Source: a virus. Taken from it: 64,000 bases of DNA. The translations under genes were made by a program, and so were the position numbers. The stretch lies in IMG/VR virus record IMGVR_UViG_3300027917_000038, positions 1 through 64,000 of that record, one strand, 5' to 3'. The notes beneath the pieces are model-generated. The model saw nothing but the letters and a program-made list of their open reading frames with translations, was not told the origin of the DNA and searched no databases. Position 1 is the first letter of the stretch; each line of letters begins with the position of its first letter. Below, piece by piece: positions 40,876 through 56,083 of this stretch.

Positions 40876-42501
40876 TTAGAATCCATAGCTGAGTTTTACT
40901 CCTCTAATTTTTAATTTATCTAAATATGTAGGTCTTCTTCTATGTCCCCAACATGATAAAGCAAGCGCAATAACTCTATCATCATGAAACGATTGTGTCC
41001 CATATTTTATATAATCTGTACCTGGAAGTTCATCACATTCAAATCTTAACAATTCTTCTCTTAAGTTTCCTATTTCTGGTTCGCTTGCTGGCGGTATTTC
41101 AATTCTGTTTTGTGCAAATGTTTTTATTAAATTTCCTATCAATTCAGGTTTTGTAATTCTTGAGATTATAAATCCTTTTTGATTTTGTCGATTGTCAAAA
41201 ATTTGAGTTCTTACTGGTATTCCATTCGATCTACGAAGATTTTCAAGATCTTCTTGCAATTGTTCTACTAAAGGATCTCCTAATCCAGTAGCATCTGGTA
41301 CTATCCATGTTGGATTAAAAACTTGAATAACTTTTAATAATTTATCTCTAATATATCTATATGTTTTGTGTTCATCATATTCACCAGCAACTGACATTCC
41401 AAAATCAAGAATTATTCTTCCAGATTTTTTGTCTAAATGTGTGATATAAAAGCAAGAAGCGTCATGTTTTCTTCCATAATCAACACCGAGGACATAATCA
41501 ATGTCTCTTCTTGCTCTAAAGATATTTTTTAATTTTTTATTTGTACATGCTTTAAGCCATTCTCCTAAGAAAACCATTGATGCGTCAGAAATGATTTCTC
41601 CTAGGTATTCTTGTCTTGCCGTTGGACTCCAACCTGCTTCATCAAGCAATTGCTTTACGTACCATTTAGGTCGAAGACCATCATTCCAAGCGTCTACGTA
41701 TGGAGTTGCGAATAGTCCAACACCGTATTTATAATCAAATGCTCCACACATTGGACATTTGTGCATATCTTCAATAGGCATTTTTCCATTTGGAAATCTG
41801 TCTACATTAAATGCGGCTTGTGGGAATCTTTCTCCACATGCTTTACAAATTATATCACGAGTTTCTAATCCTTTGTAATAATATTCTATGAACTTTCCTT
41901 TTGGGCCTTTTGGAGTGGAAAGCATTATCCATCTTTCACCGTGAGTAACTGTTGGCATTGCAGATTGAAAAATGATTTTTTCATCCATCAAATGAGCTTC
42001 ATCAACGAATAAAAGGTCGTAAGTACTACCTTCAATTCCATCTGTACAGGGCCAACATTCAACATAACTACCATTTGTAAGTTCTAAGTAGTCGACTCTT
42101 ACGCTTTTAGGAATCACATAATCCCAGAAAATAGAGTGTTTTAAGATTTTCTTGATTTTATTAAACAATTTTTTAGATTGTTTCTCAGTAGCCGCAATAA
42201 TTCCAATTGCGCAACCAGGTTTTATAACTAAGAGAGAACTTGCTGCGTATGCGCAACCAAGAGTTTTTCCTGTTTGGCGAGGCCAAATCATTACAACTCC
42301 TCTTGGAATTTTCTCGACTTCGTCAAAATCATATTGACTTAAAGGAAATCCAAATTGAATAGAGTCAATTGCGTCTTTTTGAGGCTGTGTTAATTTGATA
42401 GGACGAGAACGATTCTTTTCTTCGTGAAAAAATCTCTCAATAAAACTAACTGCCCTGAACATTACATCGTCTATTCCTTGTAACTCTTCGAGGACTTCCA
42501 C
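40876..42501 (-). CDS. terL: Terminase large subunit
   Basis: PRQTGKT, FVDEA, LSTP, RQEY, GVDYG, DATGLG, HDDRV. Confidence 0.95.
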   Translation of the reverse strand: MEVLEELQGIDDVMFRAVSFIERFFHEEKNRSRPIKLTQPQKDAIDSIQFGFPLSQYDFDEVEKIPRGVVMIWPRQTGKTLGCAYAASSLLVIKPGCAIGIIAATEKQSKKLFNKIKKILKHSIFWDYVIPKSVRVDYLELTNGSYVECWPCTDGIEGSTYDLLFVDEAHLMDEKIIFQSAMPTVTHGERWIMLSTPKGPKGKFIEYYYKGLETRDIICKACGERFPQAAFNVDRFPNGKMPIEDMHKCPMCGAFDYKYGVGLFATPYVDAWNDGLRPKWYVKQLLDEAGWSPTARQEYLGEIISDASMVFLGEWLKACTNKKLKNIFRARRDIDYVLGVDYGRKHDASCFYITHLDKKSGRIILDFGMSVAGEYDEHKTYRYIRDKLLKVIQVFNPTWIVPDATGLGDPLVEQLQEDLENLRRSNGIPVRTQIFDNRQNQKGFIISRITKPELIGNLIKTFAQNRIEIPPASEPEIGNLREELLRFECDELPGTDYIKYGTQSFHDDRVIALALSCWGHRRRPTYLDKLKIRGVKLSYGF

Positions 42502-42887
42502 TTATTTAACATCTCTTCTCTTTTATCAGGATCGACTCCTAAAACTTTAACGATTAGTTTGGCTTGAAGTTTAAGTTTTTCTTTTTCAGCCTCTTGTTGA
42601 ATTTCTCCTCCTCCCATTTTCCACATATCGTCTAAGAAGTGTCTCATTTCTGTAATCCATTTTAAGAGTTGTGGGTGCATGTATGTCTTTTGACCTATGA
42701 TGTTTCCTTCTTCGTCTATGAGTTGGTCTATTCTTTCATCTTTAAGAAGTTTATTTATGACATCCTGTACCATCTCATATCCTTTTGTCATCTCCAGAGC
42801 GATGTTTTTTAGGAGGGTGTCTTTATCACTATGCTTATCTAGTGGATAATTCTTTTCCTTTTCAACTATTTCGTTTTTAGTTTCCAT
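42471..42887 (-). CDS. Probable terminase small subunit
   Basis: Helical 138 aa overlapping the terL start; HPxL motif. Confidence 0.55.
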   Translation of the reverse strand: METKNEIVEKEKNYPLDKHSDKDTLLKNIALEMTKGYEMVQDVINKLLKDERIDQLIDEEGNIIGQKTYMHPQLLKWITEMRHFLDDMWKMGGGEIQQEAEKEKLKLQAKLIVKVLGVDPDKREEMLNKWKSSKSYKE

Positions 42888-42928: not shown

Positions 42929-42996
42929 AGGACATGTTTAAATATTTAAAAATTATAACATAAGTAGAGTATAAAAATTTATACGAGTTGATTTTA

Positions 42997-43146
42997 ATGA
43001 AAATGGTAGGAATAAAAATGAGTGATGAGCTACACAAAGAATTTAAGAGTTTTTGTCTTATGAGGGATACGAATATGTCAGAAGAATTAAGAAGTTATAT
43101 AGTTTTTTGTGTGGGTGAGATGAAAAGACGTAAAAAAGAGGTATAA
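42997..43146 (+). CDS. 49-aa ribbon-helix-helix regulator (not in ORF track)
   Basis: MKMVGIKMSDELHKEFKSFCLMRDTNMSEELRSYI, CopG/ParG-like pattern. Confidence 0.7.
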   Translation: MKMVGIKMSDELHKEFKSFCLMRDTNMSEELRSYIVFCVGEMKRRKKEV

Positions 43147-43218: not shown

Positions 43219-43354
43219 AGTTTTAAATTTGTAAAACCCCATAGTCGGGGGCAAAAATCTCATTTAAATATGAATTTGCTGGTAAAGAGATGGGGATGAG
43301 AAGTATGAAAAGACAGAGTTTTAAATTTGTAAAATCCCTATAATACTGGGGGGG
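43219..43354 (+). repeat. Two 18-bp direct repeats, each followed by CCC...G-string
   Basis: AGTTTTAAATTTGTAAAA at 43219 and 43317; G5 at 43247, G7 at 43348. Confidence 0.85.
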
Positions 43355-43560
43355 TGCGACAAATTTGAAATGAATTCTAAATAGATAAAATTAATTTTAG
43401 GATCGGTTTATTAATTTCATATTCTTGAAAATCAAATTACAAAAAATTTTATGGTGTGGGGGTTTAAGGCGACTCGCCCAGGTCTCTCAAACAAAAGCAT
43501 GCTTACGTATAAAATTTCAACGTTTTCAAGATTACGTGATCATTTTCGATCATGTATTAT

Positions 43561-43608
43561 AAAAAAAGAAAAAAAAATATTTGAATCCGATCAAATAAAT
43601 GATCGGAA
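43561..43608 (-). terminator. Hairpin plus T-tract terminator
   Basis: TCCGATCA/TGATCGGA stem followed by long T runs on the - strand. Confidence 0.65.
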
Positions 43609-43637
43609 ACTAGCATTTGATTATCATAATTGATCAT

Positions 43638-44150
43638 CTATTTTTCAGATTTCTCAATCATTTCGATCAAATATTTCATTAATTTATCATTTTGACTAGC
43701 TAATCTGATCAATTTCGATATCTTGAAAACTAGTTTTTTATCATTAGTTTTCTTAATTTGATCTTTCGAAATATTAGATTCTTTCATAGTTTTTTCGAAT
43801 TTCGAAAAATTCTTGTAGATATATGATCGAATCTTTGATTCAGATTGATCTTTCAATTTGACGTTTTCGATCATTTGAATATCATTTAAGATCAAAATTC
43901 CGATCAATTCTGATCTTTTAGCGATTTTTTTCGACGTCTTTTGATTAAGATCGTCATATAAATCATTGATCTTAGTCATAGGAATATCAATTTTGATCAT
44001 GAATTTGATCAAATCCGTTTGACGTTTTTTCGAAAATGATATCCATTTTGCATCAAATTGACTAGTCTTTATGATATTTTCGATCTTTTTATTCATGTTA
44101 TCGATCATCTCATAGAGATTTTTGATCACACGTTTATCATTCTTGATCAT
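43638..44150 (-). CDS. Lys-rich hypothetical protein encoded in the GATC island
   Basis: 170-aa ORF with its own promoter (44263) and terminator. Confidence 0.6.
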   Translation of the reverse strand: MIKNDKRVIKNLYEMIDNMNKKIENIIKTSQFDAKWISFSKKRQTDLIKFMIKIDIPMTKINDLYDDLNQKTSKKIAKRSELIGILILNDIQMIENVKLKDQSESKIRSYIYKNFSKFEKTMKESNISKDQIKKTNDKKLVFKISKLIRLASQNDKLMKYLIEMIEKSEK

Positions 44151-44243
44151 TATTATTCATTATTCTGATCATTTTGACGATCAAGATCGATCGTTTTAAT
44201 GATCATTTTTGATCATTGCGAGAATTTAGAAACGTGAATCAAG

Positions 44244-44279: not shown

Positions 44280-44500
44280 TTGAGAAGCATGAGCCGGGGT
44301 CACAAAAGTGTAAAAACATCACTCGAATTTTAGTGATTTTTAGGACATTAAAAAAAAATTCGCACTCGAAAAAATCACATAGAGAAAAGACGTACGCTTA
44401 CGCCATCGCACTCCCTCGTCCATTCTACAAATGTCAATCTCTTCCTGACAATATTTATTTGACAACTTGCTACTTACTATAATATCTCTCACATCAAAAA

Positions 44501-44535
44501 ATAGAAAAATTTATAAATGATTATTCCTACTATTA
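44501..44535 (+). promoter_or_regulatory. Early-class BRE/TATA promoter
   Basis: ATAGAAAAATTTATAAA-N6-TTCCTACTA. Confidence 0.65.
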
Positions 44536-44578
44536 ATATAATAAGAGTTCAAATAAAATTCTCTTATTTTAAAAAATT

Positions 44579-47334
44579 ATGAGCATGAATAAAAAAATGT
44601 CATCATATAATTGGCCAGATATTAAAAACATAAATTCTCAGCATACAAATTCGAATATCGAGGCAATCCTAAGAAGACTTGATGATATCTACAAACTAGC
44701 TCCGGAATCCATCAATGCTCTCACAAATATCATTCTCGCTGACATCAAGAAATTCCAAAAGCGAATAGAACTAGCTGATAAATCTGATGTTGATATATGG
44801 CAAATCTCTAATATGCCAAGATTTATCTATCGACAAGTAAAAAATAACAATCCTAGAATCACATTAGAATATATCAACGCGTTAATAGGAGGACAAATCT
44901 TAAATCCAAATAGCGTATACATCGAAAGAGCAACACGAATATTAAAGCAAAAGGAGGAAACAAAATGACTAACCATGAGATTTTATACAAGGAAAAAACA
45001 GCAAAATTTTCATTACCTAAGCCGCTAGTCTTGTCTCTACTTTTCATGGCGAATGAATGCATGTCAAAGATTTACGAAGAGAAATATATGGAATCAGGAA
45101 AAGCATTTTATCTCAATGTTGCTGAAAGATATGCTAATAAATTAGACAATCTAAATAAATGCGTACAAATGATAAGATTGTAGGTGAAATACATGAGTGA
45201 AGAAGACAAGAAATTTATGGCACAAAAATTAGAGATACTAAGATATATCACGCCTCTAATCGACGTTCCGTTGAAATACAAGAAATCGGTTCTTACATTA
45301 TTAGAATTAACAACGAATCTAAAAGATAACGTTCAATTATCCACGCGTTTAGAAGAGCTGTATGGAATCTACAAAGCTTTTTATAAACACGTGCAGGGAT
45401 TACGTCAAATGGAGCATTGTCTTGAATGCATGTCTCAAATCAAATACATAGCGAATCATTTCCAAATCGAATTTAACACAGAATTTATTATAAACATGTG
45501 AGGCGATTATGTTGAGAATAAACCAAATCTTAAATCACGAGAGATCTTCTTGCGCGTTGATCTCTCACATTTTTTATATAAAACAAAATTATAAATTGGA
45601 GGAAAAATTATGGATTTTATAAGAGTTTGTAATTTAATGACCATAACTTCTAAGCGAGCTACTGGAACAAATATAGAACAACAACTAGCTATGCATGCTT
45701 TAAATGGTATTATGCCTGAAGTTTTCACAGATCTTTACGAGATAACAAGAAGGAATCTCCATCTTGATAAAAAACAAATACTAAAAGAGATACAAGAATT
45801 AATCGACGATTTCGATAACGACAAGCCTACACAATGCGAAGAATGTCCACTAGCCGCTCTATGCCGAGGTGAAAATTGTGATTAAATTAGACAATCTAAA
45901 TGAATTGGAAGGAATGGAATTTGTCAGAATTGAATCCTACAAGAATTATATATACGCTGTAGGAAAATTCTATGACAACGGAAAAGATACATACAAATAC
46001 TACACAATTCAATGCTACAGGAATTCAACGATCACAATTCAGCCTCTCTCTTTTTTTGTTGATGAAAATCACATAAAGAGATTAACGCTACTGCAATTTG
46101 TAGATGAACAAACACGCGTTCATATAAATCCAATAAAAAATGAATGGAGGTGGCGAAATGCCGAATGAAATTGTTTGTCCAAAATGTTTGAATCGTCCAA
46201 CTAAAGAGAGAGAATCACGTGAGGTTATACACATGCACGAGAAAACATTTTGTATGCGCATTCGAGAGAGATACTGGACTTGCTACGAATGCGGAATAAA
46301 ATACAAGCAAAGAACTTTGTTTAGTGAAATTGGATTAGTTAAAGAAGACAAATTATTTGAATTGGAGGAATAAAAATGTCAGATGGAAGAATTGCTTTTA
46401 TAACACATTTAAAAGAATACATAGATTTCGAAAAAATATGGAAGCATTCTCAAGAACTTGTAGATAAGGTTGGTGAGATTCTCGACCAAGTAATATCCGT
46501 ACAAAACCATTTATATGGATTAAAAGGAAACAAATTCATAGAGGGATTTGGATTAGAATCACAATATAAGTGGGCAGCCAAATATTTAAATGACGCATCT
46601 GATCAATTGGAAAAGCTTCAAAACAGCTTAATAGATGAGTTTAATAGAATACATGCATTAGAATTGGAGGAAAAAAATGACAAAGAAAAATGAACCAAAA
46701 GGGCCCGCAATAGTCCGTTTCTTGTCAAAGAATATCAACAGACGAAGTCCTACAATGGAAGATATTAAGGGCGTGATTCTAGGAGAAAACAAAGAATGGA
46801 AGCAATGTCCTAAATGTCATGGATACGGAGATTACTTTGATAAAAATACCAAAACTTATAGAAATTGTACTTGCGAAAACGGATTGGTGAGACGTGAAGA
46901 ATAAAATGTATATTAAGAACAGTCATCCAGCCTTTTATGGATTCGAGAAATTGGAATTTCATAAATGCGATGCTGAGATACAAAACAACACTATTCTGGT
47001 GCTACATTATCTACAAACGGAAAGGAGCAGGACTAAGAAACTACAGGCGTTCTTTCTGGATGATTTAGTATCAACAGATTCAGTCGAGATTGTAGGAACA
47101 TTAGCACAATTAGATATACCAATTACATATACCAAGGGTGATTAAATGTACTATTTCGAACACAAAGATGAAGAAGAACAACAACAGAGATTCAAACGTG
47201 ATTATTTCAAATGTATAATCGAATTGGATAATTGGTACATGGAAGAATTAGACTTACAGCCTAAAAAGATACGTAAGAAAATTATAGCAACGAACGCTAT
47301 TTACAAAATGACTTTAGCACGAAGAAAAAACTAA
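44579..47334 (+). other. Cluster of about 10 small early ORFs of unknown function, including zinc fingers at 46140 and 46677
   Basis: Tightly packed co-oriented ORFs with GGAGG/GGTGA SD sites. Confidence 0.6.
45539..45575 (+). terminator. Hairpin plus T-tract
   Basis: GAGAGATC/GATCTCTC stem, then ACATTTTTT. Confidence 0.5.
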
Positions 47335-47382
47335 AAAAATAGGGACATGCGTGCGTAAGCATGTCCTAAAATTCTTTTTTTT
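47333..47382. terminator. Bidirectional terminator between convergent genes
   Basis: GGACATGC/GCATGTCC stem flanked by A and T tracts. Confidence 0.7.
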
Positions 47383-49874
47383 TATTTTGATGTTAATAAT
47401 TTAGCCTCTTTAACTTCACATTCTGCTTCATACAATAAATTGAATATGTCGTCAAATATATCTTGCTCATTCATTTCAATGGACATTTTCAATGCCACAT
47501 TAATCACTTGACTTATTTTTATATTTTGTTGCGGATAAATCGACACTCGTTTTTTGTTCAATGGATTCTTGTAGATTAAATCTTGATTGCCTATAACGGT
47601 TCCATGAGTAAAAGCAGTCCAGCCATCCCATTCATCTTGTAAATCAATACAGTTTTCTTTGAATTGGTGATAGAATTTATGCATAAATTCATCGCCACGT
47701 TTATAGATCTTCACTATTCCGCCTATGTTGAGATTATTAGACATAACCTTGCAATAACTAACTACATCTCTTTGTATTATTATTCTACGATAATAATTCA
47801 CATCTACATAATTATGTGCCATCTCTTTGATAATCTCTCGCAAGAAATCTTTTGAACGTTTTATCTTTCTTGCTCTGACTTCACTTAAAAGCACTCTGTA
47901 TTTTTTCAATGTCTTATCAATCTCTTCCAGCACTCCCAAATTGCCTAATTTCTTTTGTAGTTTTTGTATTTGTTTGCCAATGCTTTTGGCTTTCTTGCTA
48001 TTGCCGTGATAGTTCTTCTTGTTCTTTTTCAAAACTTTTATATCTCTAACAATTTCTAATATCTGTCGTTTCAAATCTATGTACTTCCTTTTCTGTTTCA
48101 TCAAGTAAGCGATTAATCTATGTAAAGCATGACTATTTGGAATAAATTTTAAGACATCTTGAAAGAACTTCCTGAAATATTTGTTTCTAACATCATCGTC
48201 TTTTATTTTGCTACATTTATCAAGATATAAATGTCTCGCATCAATATCAGCAATAAAGAAATCCATGTCATTCTCACCAGTTTCATATACACATTGATTT
48301 ATTATATTGCCACCTCGAATCCATCCAGTCTCTCCAAAATATTGTTGATGATGAAAACTTGCATAAACTTTGTAATAATTGTTTTTACTTGTCTCTTTAG
48401 AAACAATTTTTTTCTTATTGATATATCTAGGTTGTGGATAATATAATTGGTAAGAAGTAATGGCAGTATTAGTCATTTCGTAATTTCCTATTGGATCATG
48501 AATTTGTCTATCTGATAACCCCTTAATTCCTAGTTTGTGGCAAAATATCCTAAAGTTTCTTATATAATTTTGTTGAATATCCGGATTGCTATGATAAGGA
48601 AAAACAAAATCTACATCACAACACTCATCTTCTATTTGTAATTTTTCTTTATACAAATTATCTTCAACATCATCAAGAAACCCTGTATGAAACCATTTCT
48701 TTGGAGCTAAATAATCGTACTGAATCCATACTTTGTTCCTTATTTGTCCTTGTTTGACAATGCGTACATGCTTATTGTTCTCCAATTTCTTAATGAAACG
48801 TTGATATCTCTTTGGTCTAACTGAAATACAGGCAAATAAGAAGTCATTAAGATCTATTGTAGGGGTTTCATCACAATAATCAAATGCCATCGGAACATGT
48901 CGCATTATCTTTCCACTGTCAGCCCATATCTTATTGTCATTCAATTGTTCTCCATATCGTTCTTTTAACACAAAATCTTCATATTCCTTGCGTTTCTTTT
49001 TCATCCAGAGTTTAATCTTGCTGTTCTTTACGGAATAGTTATTATTCTTAATGTGTTGAATAATATGTTTATCTATGGAACAATCATCTAAGAAATTGTT
49101 AGTTGTCTTGATTTGTTCTTCTAAATCAATTTCATAATCACCACTTATTCGCCATTGTTTCTTTAAGAAACGAGCATATTCTTCCATGCTCATTACGCCT
49201 GTAGGTCTATTCATTTGTTGTTTGTTTTCGTTTATTTTCTCTTTTATGTATCTGATATATTCCAAATGATCGACCAGTTCAAAAACATCTTTTGCTATCT
49301 TTTTCTGCTTGTCTAATTCTTCTACTAATTCTCTGTTCCAAAGTGTTTCAGAATCCACTTGAATTTCTATTGTTTTTGTTTTAGCTGTTATCTTCTTTCC
49401 ATCCCAACTTCCTGGGACAATCCTCGTAGCCACTTTCACTTTCTCTGTTATTGTATAATTGCTCTGAATCCATTGTGGAATCTCTTCACAAATAGTCTTA
49501 TTATCTTTTGTGATTATCTCGCATTTCTGAAGGCAAGTAATCGCATTCTCCACAATCTTCTGAAAAGCTGGAGTTCTTTTTTTGTCATGATATTCTTGTT
49601 TAAGAATTTTGTTTAATTCTTTTTTGACCATGAGCTGAATGTGATCAATACTACATTTCCTAAGAAATCTGTTGCTTGAACGCATGTTAAATAGACCAAA
49701 GAAATCATTGGACTTTCTAACAGTATTAGTTCTAATGTACTTATAAATAATAGCATTAATAGTCTTTTTGTTTCCCTTCATCACTTGGTCGCATAATCTG
49801 TCAAGAAGCGTTGCGTCCAATTTGAGCATTTTTAATTTAAAAACAGTATTCAATTTTAAGCTTGTTAAATCCAT
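47382..49874 (-). CDS. Large TnpB/Cas12-like protein with degenerate RuvC
   Basis: Ordered TnpB-type motifs in the C-terminal 350 aa (see findings); D543 kept, Q701 and V790 at the other catalytic positions. Confidence 0.65.
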   Translation of the reverse strand: MDLTSLKLNTVFKLKMLKLDATLLDRLCDQVMKGNKKTINAIIYKYIRTNTVRKSNDFFGLFNMRSSNRFLRKCSIDHIQLMVKKELNKILKQEYHDKKRTPAFQKIVENAITCLQKCEIITKDNKTICEEIPQWIQSNYTITEKVKVATRIVPGSWDGKKITAKTKTIEIQVDSETLWNRELVEELDKQKKIAKDVFELVDHLEYIRYIKEKINENKQQMNRPTGVMSMEEYARFLKKQWRISGDYEIDLEEQIKTTNNFLDDCSIDKHIIQHIKNNNYSVKNSKIKLWMKKKRKEYEDFVLKERYGEQLNDNKIWADSGKIMRHVPMAFDYCDETPTIDLNDFLFACISVRPKRYQRFIKKLENNKHVRIVKQGQIRNKVWIQYDYLAPKKWFHTGFLDDVEDNLYKEKLQIEDECCDVDFVFPYHSNPDIQQNYIRNFRIFCHKLGIKGLSDRQIHDPIGNYEMTNTAITSYQLYYPQPRYINKKKIVSKETSKNNYYKVYASFHHQQYFGETGWIRGGNIINQCVYETGENDMDFFIADIDARHLYLDKCSKIKDDDVRNKYFRKFFQDVLKFIPNSHALHRLIAYLMKQKRKYIDLKRQILEIVRDIKVLKKNKKNYHGNSKKAKSIGKQIQKLQKKLGNLGVLEEIDKTLKKYRVLLSEVRARKIKRSKDFLREIIKEMAHNYVDVNYYRRIIIQRDVVSYCKVMSNNLNIGGIVKIYKRGDEFMHKFYHQFKENCIDLQDEWDGWTAFTHGTVIGNQDLIYKNPLNKKRVSIYPQQNIKISQVINVALKMSIEMNEQDIFDDIFNLLYEAECEVKEAKLLTSK

Positions 49875-50427: not shown

Positions 50428-51636
50428 CACCAGTTTAATGAGATCTTTCAAGGATTTAACCGAAATTCAAAAATCTTAAAATCCTAAGATATATTTTTTA
50501 AATTCGGAAAATAGATTTGATGGAATGATTCCCAAGTCTCACAGATTTGCTCGTTTTTTTCTCGAATATATAGATTAAGAAAAGTAATTTAATAAAAACA
50601 ATTTTAATTAACATAAATAAAAATTTGGAGGATTTAGTATGCCAGAAAAAAAATTGACCAATCAACAGATTTTGGATAGGACGAAGGCAAAGAGCTATAT
50701 TATGTTGCCACAAGATCACATCGTTAAAGTCGTCTCACAATTGAATGCGGAGCAACAAAAGAAATGCTTTGGAAACGAAAAAACATTAAAACCACTCAAC
50801 CCAGTACAAGCGGCAGGTATCCTAACTGTCGTAGAGGGATTGGATAAAATCGATCCACGACCAATTAGCAAGATTCCTATTGACGACCAAAGAAAAATAA
50901 TCAAAGAGCAATCCGCAAAAAACGACGCTGTCAAGAAATTCTTGGAAGAAAACGGCTATTGGGAGCAATCTCAAATACTTAAGGAAACTACAGTTGCTGG
51001 TGATTTCAGTCCATCCGGACTTTGGTCTGTTATTGACGATATGATTGCTGACATGGATTTCAGCAGACCAAAAGAATAAACACAATAATTTAATTTTTTT
51101 TTTCGTTGATGTATCCTCTACAAAGTAAAAGTAACATAAAAAACAAGAGGGAAATATTATGAGCACACCAGAATTTAAAGACCTTTTTAATAAAGATGTC
51201 TTAAAGGATTTTGTTAAGAAACGAACAAAAGAAGCATTCACAGAAGTAGATAAAGAACTAAAAAAGTTTGTAGATTTTTTCGAAAGTGAGGGAAAATGTC
51301 ACAGAGGAGAAAAAGTATTTGGATGTTATCGTAGAGATGTAATAGCATTCACGGAACTTCTTATTGGAAAGAAACTTCCAATGCCACAAGACTATAATGG
51401 GGCTTGTATCAAAAACGGGGAAACTGGAAAGAAATTATATCTTGTTACTAAATCAAAACATTATATAGATCATCCAACTGATATTCTCACAGTATTAGAT
51501 GCCAGTGGAAATGAGAGGGAATTAAAGAAAACTCCTACTCCAGCCACAGATGAAGAAATAGACAAATTTTTTGAGGATTTTAAAATTACAAAGGAAGTAG
51601 TACGTTCAATATTCAACTTCTAATATTTTTTTTCAC

Positions 51637-54622: not shown

Positions 54623-55072
54623 TTTGTTAATTTTAACCCTTTTTTTTTCTTTTATTTGTATCACGATTATTGGTAATTATTATGATAGATTCACAAACAA
54701 TTTGGCAATCCAAACAGAATCATCCGGAATTGGTAGTTGAAGACATTAAAAAATTGTTTAATCTTTCCGACAAGGAATGTGAACAAATAAGATTTATTCT
54801 TATGAATCGCGGCATTAATAAATGGTTGTATGCGAGACGATTGTTTATAAAACTAAAACATTCCGTTAAAAAAATAAGAAAGATAGCAATTTCTGATTAT
54901 GGTCATAAACATCCTCTTGTTAAAGAGATTAAGAAAATACAAGAGAAAATGCAAAACATTGCTAAATTGCCCCGTTGGATAGAATGGGGAGATCACGTTC
55001 ATAAAAACATGAAACAAAATGAGAAAGACATAATTATAAAAGGTAAACATTGTTAAAATTAGAGGTAAAAAA

Positions 55073-56083
55073 ATGAGTCACGCAACTGTGTTGATAATAA
55101 GCAAGAAAAATGATGAAGACACAATCCAAAAAATGATGGAACCCTATTGGGAACTGGATTTAAGTCGTGAAGATCTTAAAGAAGATCCAAGAGCTGTTTT
55201 TGTTGAAAAATTTAAAGCAAGAGATCTTCAAACTAAATTTGAAAAATGGGTTAATAAAATGCTTTTACGGATTTCTAAAACTCAACTTCAAATAAAAAAC
55301 AAAGATTTTGAAGAGTTAAAACAAAGACCGTTCATAAAAGACATGAGTGACGAAGAAATAGTTAAAAAACTAGAAGAACAAATAGAAGAGGACAAAAAAA
55401 TATTAAAATCTTATAACACATCCATAGAATGGGTAGATGAATGGCACGGATATTATTTAAACAAAGAAGGCATAGCATACGGATATTATATTAATCCTAA
55501 TGATAAGTGGGATTGGTACCAAATCGGAGGACGATGGGCTGGAATGATTAAACTCAAAAAAGGAGCAGAAGGAGAAATTGGAGAAAAATCTTTTATGTTC
55601 AAAGGAAATCCTTATGAAGATGGTGGTGTTGATTCTGCTCAAGTTAAAAACATAGATGAAGAATGTTTAAAATCACTCATTACTTATGCTGTTCTTGATG
55701 AAGAAGGATGGCATGAAAAATCCAGAATGGGATGGTGGGGATGTTCTCAATACGACAAATACTGCTGTGTTGTAGAAGAAATTAACATTCATGAAATACT
55801 ACATCATTTTAAGCATGATTATTTTGGAATAAATCACACATGGAAAGGATATAGTAATGAATATGTTGAATTGTTCATCAAAACTTTACACTCACATTAT
55901 TATCGTGATGGAAAAGTTTATAAACTTAAGAATAATCTTGGACAAGGAAGAACTGAACTAACTGATGATTTAAAACGTGTTGAATTTTTTAGAAACAAAC
56001 ACTGGCAAGATTATTTTTACAACAGATTTATAAAAAACTTAGCTCCTGACATGTATTTAACAATTGTTGATTATCACATTTAA
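55073..56083 (+). CDS. Conserved phage protein of unknown function
   Basis: MSH, NPNDKWDWYQIGGRW, GWWG, VDYHI motifs. Confidence 0.65.
   Translation: MSHATVLIISKKNDEDTIQKMMEPYWELDLSREDLKEDPRAVFVEKFKARDLQTKFEKWVNKMLLRISKTQLQIKNKDFEELKQRPFIKDMSDEEIVKKLEEQIEEDKKILKSYNTSIEWVDEWHGYYLNKEGIAYGYYINPNDKWDWYQIGGRWAGMIKLKKGAEGEIGEKSFMFKGNPYEDGGVDSAQVKNIDEECLKSLITYAVLDEEGWHEKSRMGWWGCSQYDKYCCVVEEINIHEILHHFKHDYFGINHTWKGYSNEYVELFIKTLHSHYYRDGKVYKLKNNLGQGRTELTDDLKRVEFFRNKHWQDYFYNRFIKNLAPDMYLTIVDYHI

Follow-up and report, generated by a model that had tools for sequence, protein, structure and literature searches.

What role does a 677-bp stretch of viral DNA play in which GATC occurs once per 24 bp and which lies beside the terminase genes? 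The question bears on how such viruses initiate packaging or control the timing of late genes and on whether Asgard archaea and their viruses read adenine methylation as a signal. The stretch belongs to the window analysed here, 64,000 nt in length, which corresponds to bases 1-64000 of a single linear IMG/VR virus contig of 75,891 bp (G000; 31% G+C, 77% complete according to CheckV). The virus is uncultivated and probably has an archaeal host: its non-structural genes encode two TFIIB zinc ribbons, an ERCC4 nuclease and an XPD-like helicase, its terminators are T-runs, and the nearest relative that we found is a 14-kb contig from a 'Candidatus Heimdallarchaeota' genome bin, with a large terminase subunit 74% identical. 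We treat the link to Heimdallarchaeota as a lead rather than proof. Contig sequence was found in three marine-sediment metagenomes (runs X1-X3). The contig encodes a Mu-type portal, confirmed by PHROG and Pfam, and a large terminase subunit (terL, 40876-42501, minus strand; PHROG_2, 1.8e-34; Pfam Terminase_6N, 1.2e-10). Overlapping the start of terL is a gene coding for a 138-aa protein (42471-42887, minus strand) that is small-terminase-like by position only and is referred to below as terS-like. This protein is kept in relatives at 37-60% identity, has no Pfam, PHROG or NCBIfam match, and gave an AlphaFold model (pLDDT 53) that allows no fold call.

Composition, codon use and helical phasing of the GATC island

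Between positions 43538 and 44214 (26% G+C) we counted 28 GATC, compared to 1.5 expected from the region's own base composition, and the highest count reached in 20,000 shufflings of the island was 8. The initial annotation had given the same count, with an expectation of about 2, and most of its description held on recounting. The ten TGATCA that it reported are recovered when the bases just outside the island's ends are included (8 lie strictly inside), and CGATCA, the reverse of TGATCG, occurs 7 times and TGATCG twice, such that 19 of the 28 sites match the P1 hexamer TGATC(A/G) in one orientation. G never occurs at position −1 and C never at position +1, which gives the sites the form YGATCR. 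TCGA, ACGT and CTAG are frequent, as had been stated, with 13 TCGA compared to 1.5 expected and four copies each of ACGT and CTAG compared to ~0.7 expected; half of the TCGA excess is accounted for by TCGATC overlaps, and the remaining TTCGAA sites are out of phase. The reported scarcity of GG (3.0 per kb compared to 27.4 elsewhere in the window) and CC (5.9 compared to 30.0) results from nearly all G and C sitting in GA and TC steps. The suggestion that this could be first-injected DNA purged of restriction sites was not sustained, as GATC, TCGA, CTAG and ACGT are all enriched and only G/C-rich sites are rare, as expected at 26% G+C. The edges are indeed sharp, the closest GATCs outside being at 43401 and 45543. 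This is the only GATC island of the 75,891-bp contig (best 700-bp window, adjusted P about 2e-19), and GATC is mildly under-represented outside it, like other palindromes (observed/expected 0.66 in G000, within a reported range of 0.56-0.75). Tandem Repeats Finder detected no true tandem repeat in the island, and thus the array is not a recent duplication. An Rfam search of the island returned no credible match; its single-strand fold z-score of −3 is no more than its palindromes would produce, and is uninformative.

Two other viruses carry such an island: L046, a Heimdallarchaeota-binned relative (26 GATC in 552 bp), and G002, which is the same virus as L037 (about 25 GATC in about 0.9 kb). 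The island immediately precedes the terS-like gene and terL in all three viruses. In G000 it covers ORF170 (43638-44150, minus strand), a gene for a small, predicted all-helical protein of 170 aa, together with both its flanks, as initially described: 17 sites fall within the ORF, five on its 3′ side and six on its 5′ side. Given the protein and the codon use of the genome, 3.99 GATCs are expected in ORF170, and the maximum of 5000 resamplings was 9. The sites are made with rare codons. ATC, which serves for 7% of isoleucines genome-wide, is used in 15 of 26 isoleucine codons of ORF170, in 12 of 16 cases after a codon ending in G compared to 3 of 10 otherwise. The fraction of ATC after a G-ending codon is 12/16, 11/13 and 5/7 in the three island genes versus 0/4 and 0/5 in two island-less homologues, and the rare codons TCG and TTG are likewise used in ORF170 to make GATC. 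Selection on the island acts on the DNA, not on the protein. The amino acid sequence is itself shaped as well, as the maximum number of GATCs that could be encoded per 100 aa is 14.5-18 for island-bearing proteins versus 8-9 for island-less ones. Selection at the DNA level that is extreme enough to reshape codons and amino acids is common to three diverged viruses, and the island offers a clear example from nature of a structural code of the DNA written over a coding sequence.

The ORF170 protein has no Pfam, PHROG or NCBIfam match and no usable match in the ESM Atlas. Its AlphaFold model is poor (pLDDT 54), and isoleucines occur at heptad spacing near its N-terminus. Homologues in relatives share 26-36% identity, and the family is tiny, with 17 cluster representatives among 1.8 billion; a profile search contributed 12 of its proteins, and scans of IMG/VR with the family proteins P0009, P0010 and P0011 gave no match. 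From the number of GATCs that each protein could encode, P0009 is predicted to have an island, whereas P0010-P0013 and P0016-P0020 are predicted to lack one.

We scanned the GATC positions for periods between 2.5 and 40 bp. The strongest period for G000 is 10.7 bp (p<2e-4), with a power of 13.7 where 28 is the maximum; G002 gives 10.5 bp (p about 0.001) and L046 gives 10.8 bp (p = 0.006). In addition, 25 of the 28 sites of G000 lie within 60 degrees of the mean phase over 63 helical turns. T-tracts in the island follow the same period about half a turn away from the GATCs, and G and C outside GATC are unphased. An all-helical protein could by itself impose a rhythm of about 10.8 nt on its gene. 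Protein helix periodicity does not explain the phasing observed here, since 10 of the 11 sites in the non-coding flanks of G000 are in phase with the coding sites (p = 1e-4). With its GATCs in phase and T-tracts in antiphase, the array is displayed on one face of DNA that should be intrinsically curved.

The ORF170 unit and methylases in related viruses

The array matches a single self-contained ORF170 unit, from promoter to terminator, reaching 100 bp past the stop codon and 64 bp past the start codon in G000, and 40-90 bp past the homologous ORF in L046. The 5′ flank of ORF170, or promoter-proximal region (44151-44216, minus strand), holds its six GATCs along with double sites at 44166-44182 and 44200-44216. 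The five GATCs of the 3′ flank (43537-43637, minus strand) are accompanied by a double site at the outer edge (43537-43553) and by a T-run on the minus strand (A-run at about 43563-43580) that is a probable archaeal terminator. The 16-17-bp double site TGATCATTTT(C/T)GATCA(T) thereby occupies both edges in G000, at 43537 and 44200, and likewise both edges in L046, at 1954 and 2471. On the coding strand, tGATCgaaaatGATCa precedes the start of the ORF by 30-75 nt in G000, L046 and G002. The 16-mer double site is present in the promoter region of all three island viruses and at the 3′ edge of two of them, and a stop codon followed by atGATC, as well as the T-run, are kept in all three. These shared features indicate that the three islands are homologous, not convergent. 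In L046, the entire ORF170 unit is inverted relative to terS/terL, and the flanking gene order is retained. Site positions are conserved between G000 and L046 in 13 of 28 cases, with proteins 36% identical, compared to 14% for other 4-mers (p = 4e-5), a figure that may be somewhat favoured by the aligner. An IMG/VR-wide scan for the 16-mer double site retrieved 27 contigs, with an island only in G002.

We compared the DNA of five members of the ORF170 family (G000, L046, G002, G001 and L038). G001 has an ORF170 gene at the matching place with only a vestige of the array (7 GATCA versus 0.9 expected), and L038 keeps the gene with zero GATC in the ORF. The initial annotation had counted relatives that keep the protein and lose the GATC density as evidence against its reading. 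The outcome is mixed, as this is the case for G001 and L038, and not for L046 and G002, in which both are kept. The ORF170 protein does not need the array for its role, given that its gene persists in G001 and L038. No island was found in the relatives G003, G004 and G005. The terL tree places G002 with the island-less clade of G003 and G004. In the ORF170 tree, a clade unites G000, L046 and P0009, and a long branch leads to G002; the terS-like and terL products of G001 and L038 are about as similar to those of G000 as are those of G002. Trees and presence pattern together indicate a patchy distribution of the island, for which multiple losses or transfer of the unit from one virus to another may be responsible. 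The island-less homologues contain no alternative strongly enriched or phased motif, just a mild excess of CTAG. CTAG occurs 4, 4, 2, 6 and 6 times in the ORF170-family regions of G000, L046, G002, G001 and L038, respectively, compared to about 0.7 expected, a mild enrichment that includes the two regions devoid of GATC excess; many copies read ACTAG, and they are unphased. A small GATC cluster, with five sites in 80 bp and ten in about 330 bp, was also noticed in G003 (55018-55345), in a divergent intergenic region adjoining the homologue of the window's 830-aa gene (47382-49874) and far from terL.

The initial annotation stated that no methylase lies in the window. This remains true of the whole contig, in which no PF02086, PF01555 or PF05869 gene was found, but all five relatives G001 to G005 encode a Dam-family enzyme of about 290-300 aa (PF02086). 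This putatively GATC-specific enzyme matches TIGR00571 (1.7e-26) and structures of E. coli Dam (1e-10). Its gene lies in G002 between a radical-SAM-like and a nucleoside-deoxyribosyltransferase-like gene. In G000, the radical-SAM-like gene (1-618) and the deoxyribosyltransferase-like gene (897-1298) have no methylase between them. The 619-896 gap is filled by a 74-aa ORF only, and the start of the contig falls inside the radical-SAM-like gene. Of the Dam- and DpnII-type enzymes for which a search of genome and host had been proposed, the Dam type was found in the Heimdallarchaeota bin and not on the contig: the bin contains a solitary Dam-family gene among housekeeping genes, with only putative GATC specificity. 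No DpnII-type enzyme was found in the bin. Arrays of GATC triplets spaced by one helical turn do not occur elsewhere in this bin beyond chance, and the SeqA domain PF03925 has no match on the contig.

Avoidance of 4-bp palindromes differs among these viruses. The 99 kb of G001 contain no CCGG, G002 has neither ACGT nor CCGG, and G003 has no ACGT, with expectations ranging from tens to hundreds of copies; G000 completely avoids no 4-bp palindrome. Such differences imply different restriction pressures, and hence different host strains, within the virus group.

Candidate functions of the array

The density of the sites, selection at the DNA level, phasing, the match to one gene unit, conservation and inversion together with the gene establish the island as a selected cis-acting DNA element. 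Regulatory GATC clusters, such as those of oriC, the dnaA promoter, P1 pac, pap and agn43, are textbook elements of gamma-proteobacteria and their phages. Our literature search found no comparable cluster in archaea or their viruses, and archaea have no known GATC-reading protein. Among known systems, the array resembles the clusters by which SeqA sequesters oriC and the dnaA promoter of E. coli. These also have about one GATC per 22-24 bp (oriC holds 11 in about 250 bp; PMC11447400), cover a promoter and operate in a system with a Dam-family methylase, and the preference of SeqA for GATC pairs on the same DNA face (PMC2691817) is a same-face requirement that recalls the phasing of the island. 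The island is, however, about three times longer than SeqA clusters and mostly inside coding sequence, and it belongs to a probable archaeal virus in which no SeqA homologue was found on the contig and no DnaA boxes are expected.

We tentatively favour, at somewhat short of even chances, a cooperative and probably methylation-sensitive protein complex that covers the ORF170 unit and switches it. About 28 YGATCR sites, set at multiples of 10.7 bp on one face of predicted curved, AT-rich DNA and closed at each end by a 16-17-bp double site, would nucleate a cooperative protein filament or wrapped complex over the whole unit. Binding would probably depend on the adenine-methylation state of GATC, such that the unit would be switched by replication of the viral DNA or by the methylation history of incoming DNA. 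Given the location of the unit, at the early/late junction and immediately ahead of terS-terL, such a switch would set the timing of the late, packaging phase of the viral cycle. We place this reading first because the array matches a gene unit, with double sites at its edges and promoter and an inversion linked to the gene, and because relatives whose terminase genes are similar lack it; the Dam-family genes of the five relatives and of the bin provide a plausible link to methylation. A protein that reads the array, a role for methylation and the target of the switch are inferred. Candidate readers would be ORF170 itself, the terS-like protein and a neighbouring 52-aa ORF (42988-43146, plus strand, opposite to terS), putatively ribbon-helix-helix-like by eye. 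This last ORF has no Pfam, PHROG or NCBIfam match; its position is conserved, with counterparts in the same position and orientation in G001 (66 aa) and L046 (113 aa), and it is a possible DNA-binding reader. Several observations speak against a methylation-sensitive switch: ORF170, the terS-like protein and the 52-aa ORF belong to no recognisable DNA-binding family, G000 has no methylase at the position matching that of its relatives, G001 and L038 keep the gene and not the array, and 17 sites within the gene are more than the control of a promoter would by itself require.

The main rival, which we consider rather unlikely, is a P1-like pac site, at which a terminase recognition subunit would load onto phased TGATC(A/G) hexamers on bent DNA and cut nearby, in a headful start gated by Dam. 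The initial annotation had proposed a methylation-timed pac or origin. Of that proposal, a selected GATC-based cis element, the YGATCR form of its sites and a plausible link to methylation, through the Dam-family enzymes of five relatives and the bin, stand; the GC-skew minimum at 50.5 kb, the match of the array to a gene inverted relative to the terminase in L046 and its absence from relatives with similar terminase genes do not bear out the pac or origin itself. P1 pac spans 161 bp inside pacA, contains seven TGATC(A/G) hexamers, depends on Dam and has a bent structure (PMC10028697). Like P1 pac, the island writes TGATC(A/G), to which 19 of its 28 sites conform, into coding sequence beside terminase genes on predicted bent DNA, with Dam-family methylation available in the virus group according to the predicted enzymes, and the ORF170 gene is directly upstream of a terS-like gene, itself identified by position only. 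Assembly of G001 as a circle with a 99-bp overlap also fits headful packaging. At 550-1100 bp and 25-28 sites, however, the islands are four to five times the size of P1 pac (26-28 sites over 550-680 bp in two of them), and they are continuous over 677 bp in G000 and 552 bp in L046, lacking an obvious central gap for cutting, unlike the two clusters that flank the cut site in P1. Their predicted bend comes from phased T-tracts rather than IHF. Moreover, the array occupies a small gene distinct from the terS-like one and is inverted together with that small gene in L046, and it is absent from G001 and L038 despite terminase similarity comparable to that of G002. Two G002 assemblies stop at the island or no more than 261 bp from it, and depth falls about two-fold just right of it in two samples, as judged from the assembled Logan contigs of runs X1-X3 that served for all depth and junction checks. 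Both observations would suit a packaging site; they also fit strain mosaicism at a module junction, as the G002 assembly ends coincide with a mosaic junction, Logan contigs bridge the island with no excess of contig ends listed (assembled contigs only), and depth recovers at 47.5 kb in X1, so that we read the drop as mosaicism rather than a packaging gradient.

An origin inside its own initiator gene, of the lambda ori/O type, appears improbable to us. ORF170 would bind the sites, bend the DNA and open an AT-rich stretch, and the sites are indeed located in and around one gene with which they move, in AT-rich and predicted curved DNA, at a GATC density matching that of oriC and at a junction of divergent transcription. 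The lambda origin in gene O similarly has repeated, phased palindromic sites on bent DNA in a small phage gene, site and gene moving as one unit, but it consists of four 19-bp iterons versus about 28 cores of 4-6 bp in the island. Unlike lambda O, ORF170 bears no initiator signature and resembles neither helicase loaders nor any DNA-binding family, and we found no evidence of an origin, from skew or otherwise: the cumulative GC-skew minimum, at 50,484, lies 6.6 kb from the island, with a plateau at 42-50 kb, and skew on this contig also tracks gene orientation. The absence of an alternative strongly enriched or phased motif in the island-less homologues argues against a reader-and-site pair of changing specificity, and known archaeal origins rely on ORB-type elements rather than GATC. 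Plasmid centromeres offer another likeness, as R1 parC-ParR and pSM19035 parS-omega comprise many short repeats at about one-turn spacing that are bound cooperatively on one face, and a ribbon-helix-helix-like gene adjoins the island. They differ from the island in that no partition ATPase was seen near it, that it lies inside coding sequence, and that the putative ribbon-helix-helix-like ORF is also present in island-less relatives. Still less probable is a decoy, in which the block of GATC, together with TCGA, would draw a defence protein that binds GATC, a restriction enzyme or a methylase of the host away from the rest of the genome. The island does concentrate several 4-bp palindromes, and the absence of ACGT and/or CCGG in G001-G003 shows that restriction pressure acts on the virus group; yet a single cut is lethal, which makes clustering of cleavable sites costly, the depletion of GATC outside the island is only mild (0.56-0.75), the associated bin yielded no DpnII-type enzyme, and a decoy needs neither phasing nor edge double sites nor a match to one gene. 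Finally, we give hardly any credence to a by-product of foreign codon use, local mutation or repair bias, or amphipathic-helix periodicity, which is already largely refuted. Alpha-helical proteins can yield the observed rhythm, and ORF170 is predicted to be all-helical with isoleucine heptads, but ATC is used almost only where GATC results, the sites in either non-coding flank are dense and share the phase, the architecture is kept across three diverged viruses, site positions are conserved, and homologues of the same fold lack the sites. We reserve the remaining probability for a function outside this list.

The wider proposal that Asgard-associated viruses carry an epigenetic switch, in which a gene recoded into a one-face GATC scaffold is coated by an archaeal or viral reader of adenine methylation, is possible, though we hold it as doubtful. 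Such a switch would be a functional counterpart of SeqA/oriC sequestration in bacteria and would tie the late packaging programme to replication or to how the incoming genome had been methylated. No regulatory element built from a GATC cluster would have been known from the archaeal domain before it, and it would imply a methyl-GATC reader that is likewise the first of that domain.

Neighbouring sequences and probable strain mosaicism

A second conserved element lies between the island and terS. The palindromic hairpin site AAATTTGT..CCCC-loop-GGGG..CAAATTT occurs there in two copies (43219-43260 and 43317-43375), and it is also found in the island-less G001 (47300 and 69285) and in G002 (59197). 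An extra copy is located 22-25 kb away in both G000 (at about 68552, outside the window) and G001, and the metagenome contigs L040, L042 and L044 from relatives end about where the site would be expected. We consider it a candidate conserved cis site, which could be a terminus, a recombination site or the target of a regulator, and as such a rival candidate to the island.

A 3162-bp 'joint' was set aside because no more than 20 letters matched on one of its sides. One X2 contig matches the window up to 43576, just inside the left edge of the island, and continues into unrelated sequence; another X2 contig has nine substitutions and one inserted base at 43437-43469 and two changes inside the island. 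These contigs suggest strain-level recombination at the island border. To the right of the island, the small plus-strand genes at 44400-47500 reach, in two samples, about half the depth seen over the structural module and are represented by many short contigs, as would suit a hypervariable early region that co-occurring strains share unevenly.
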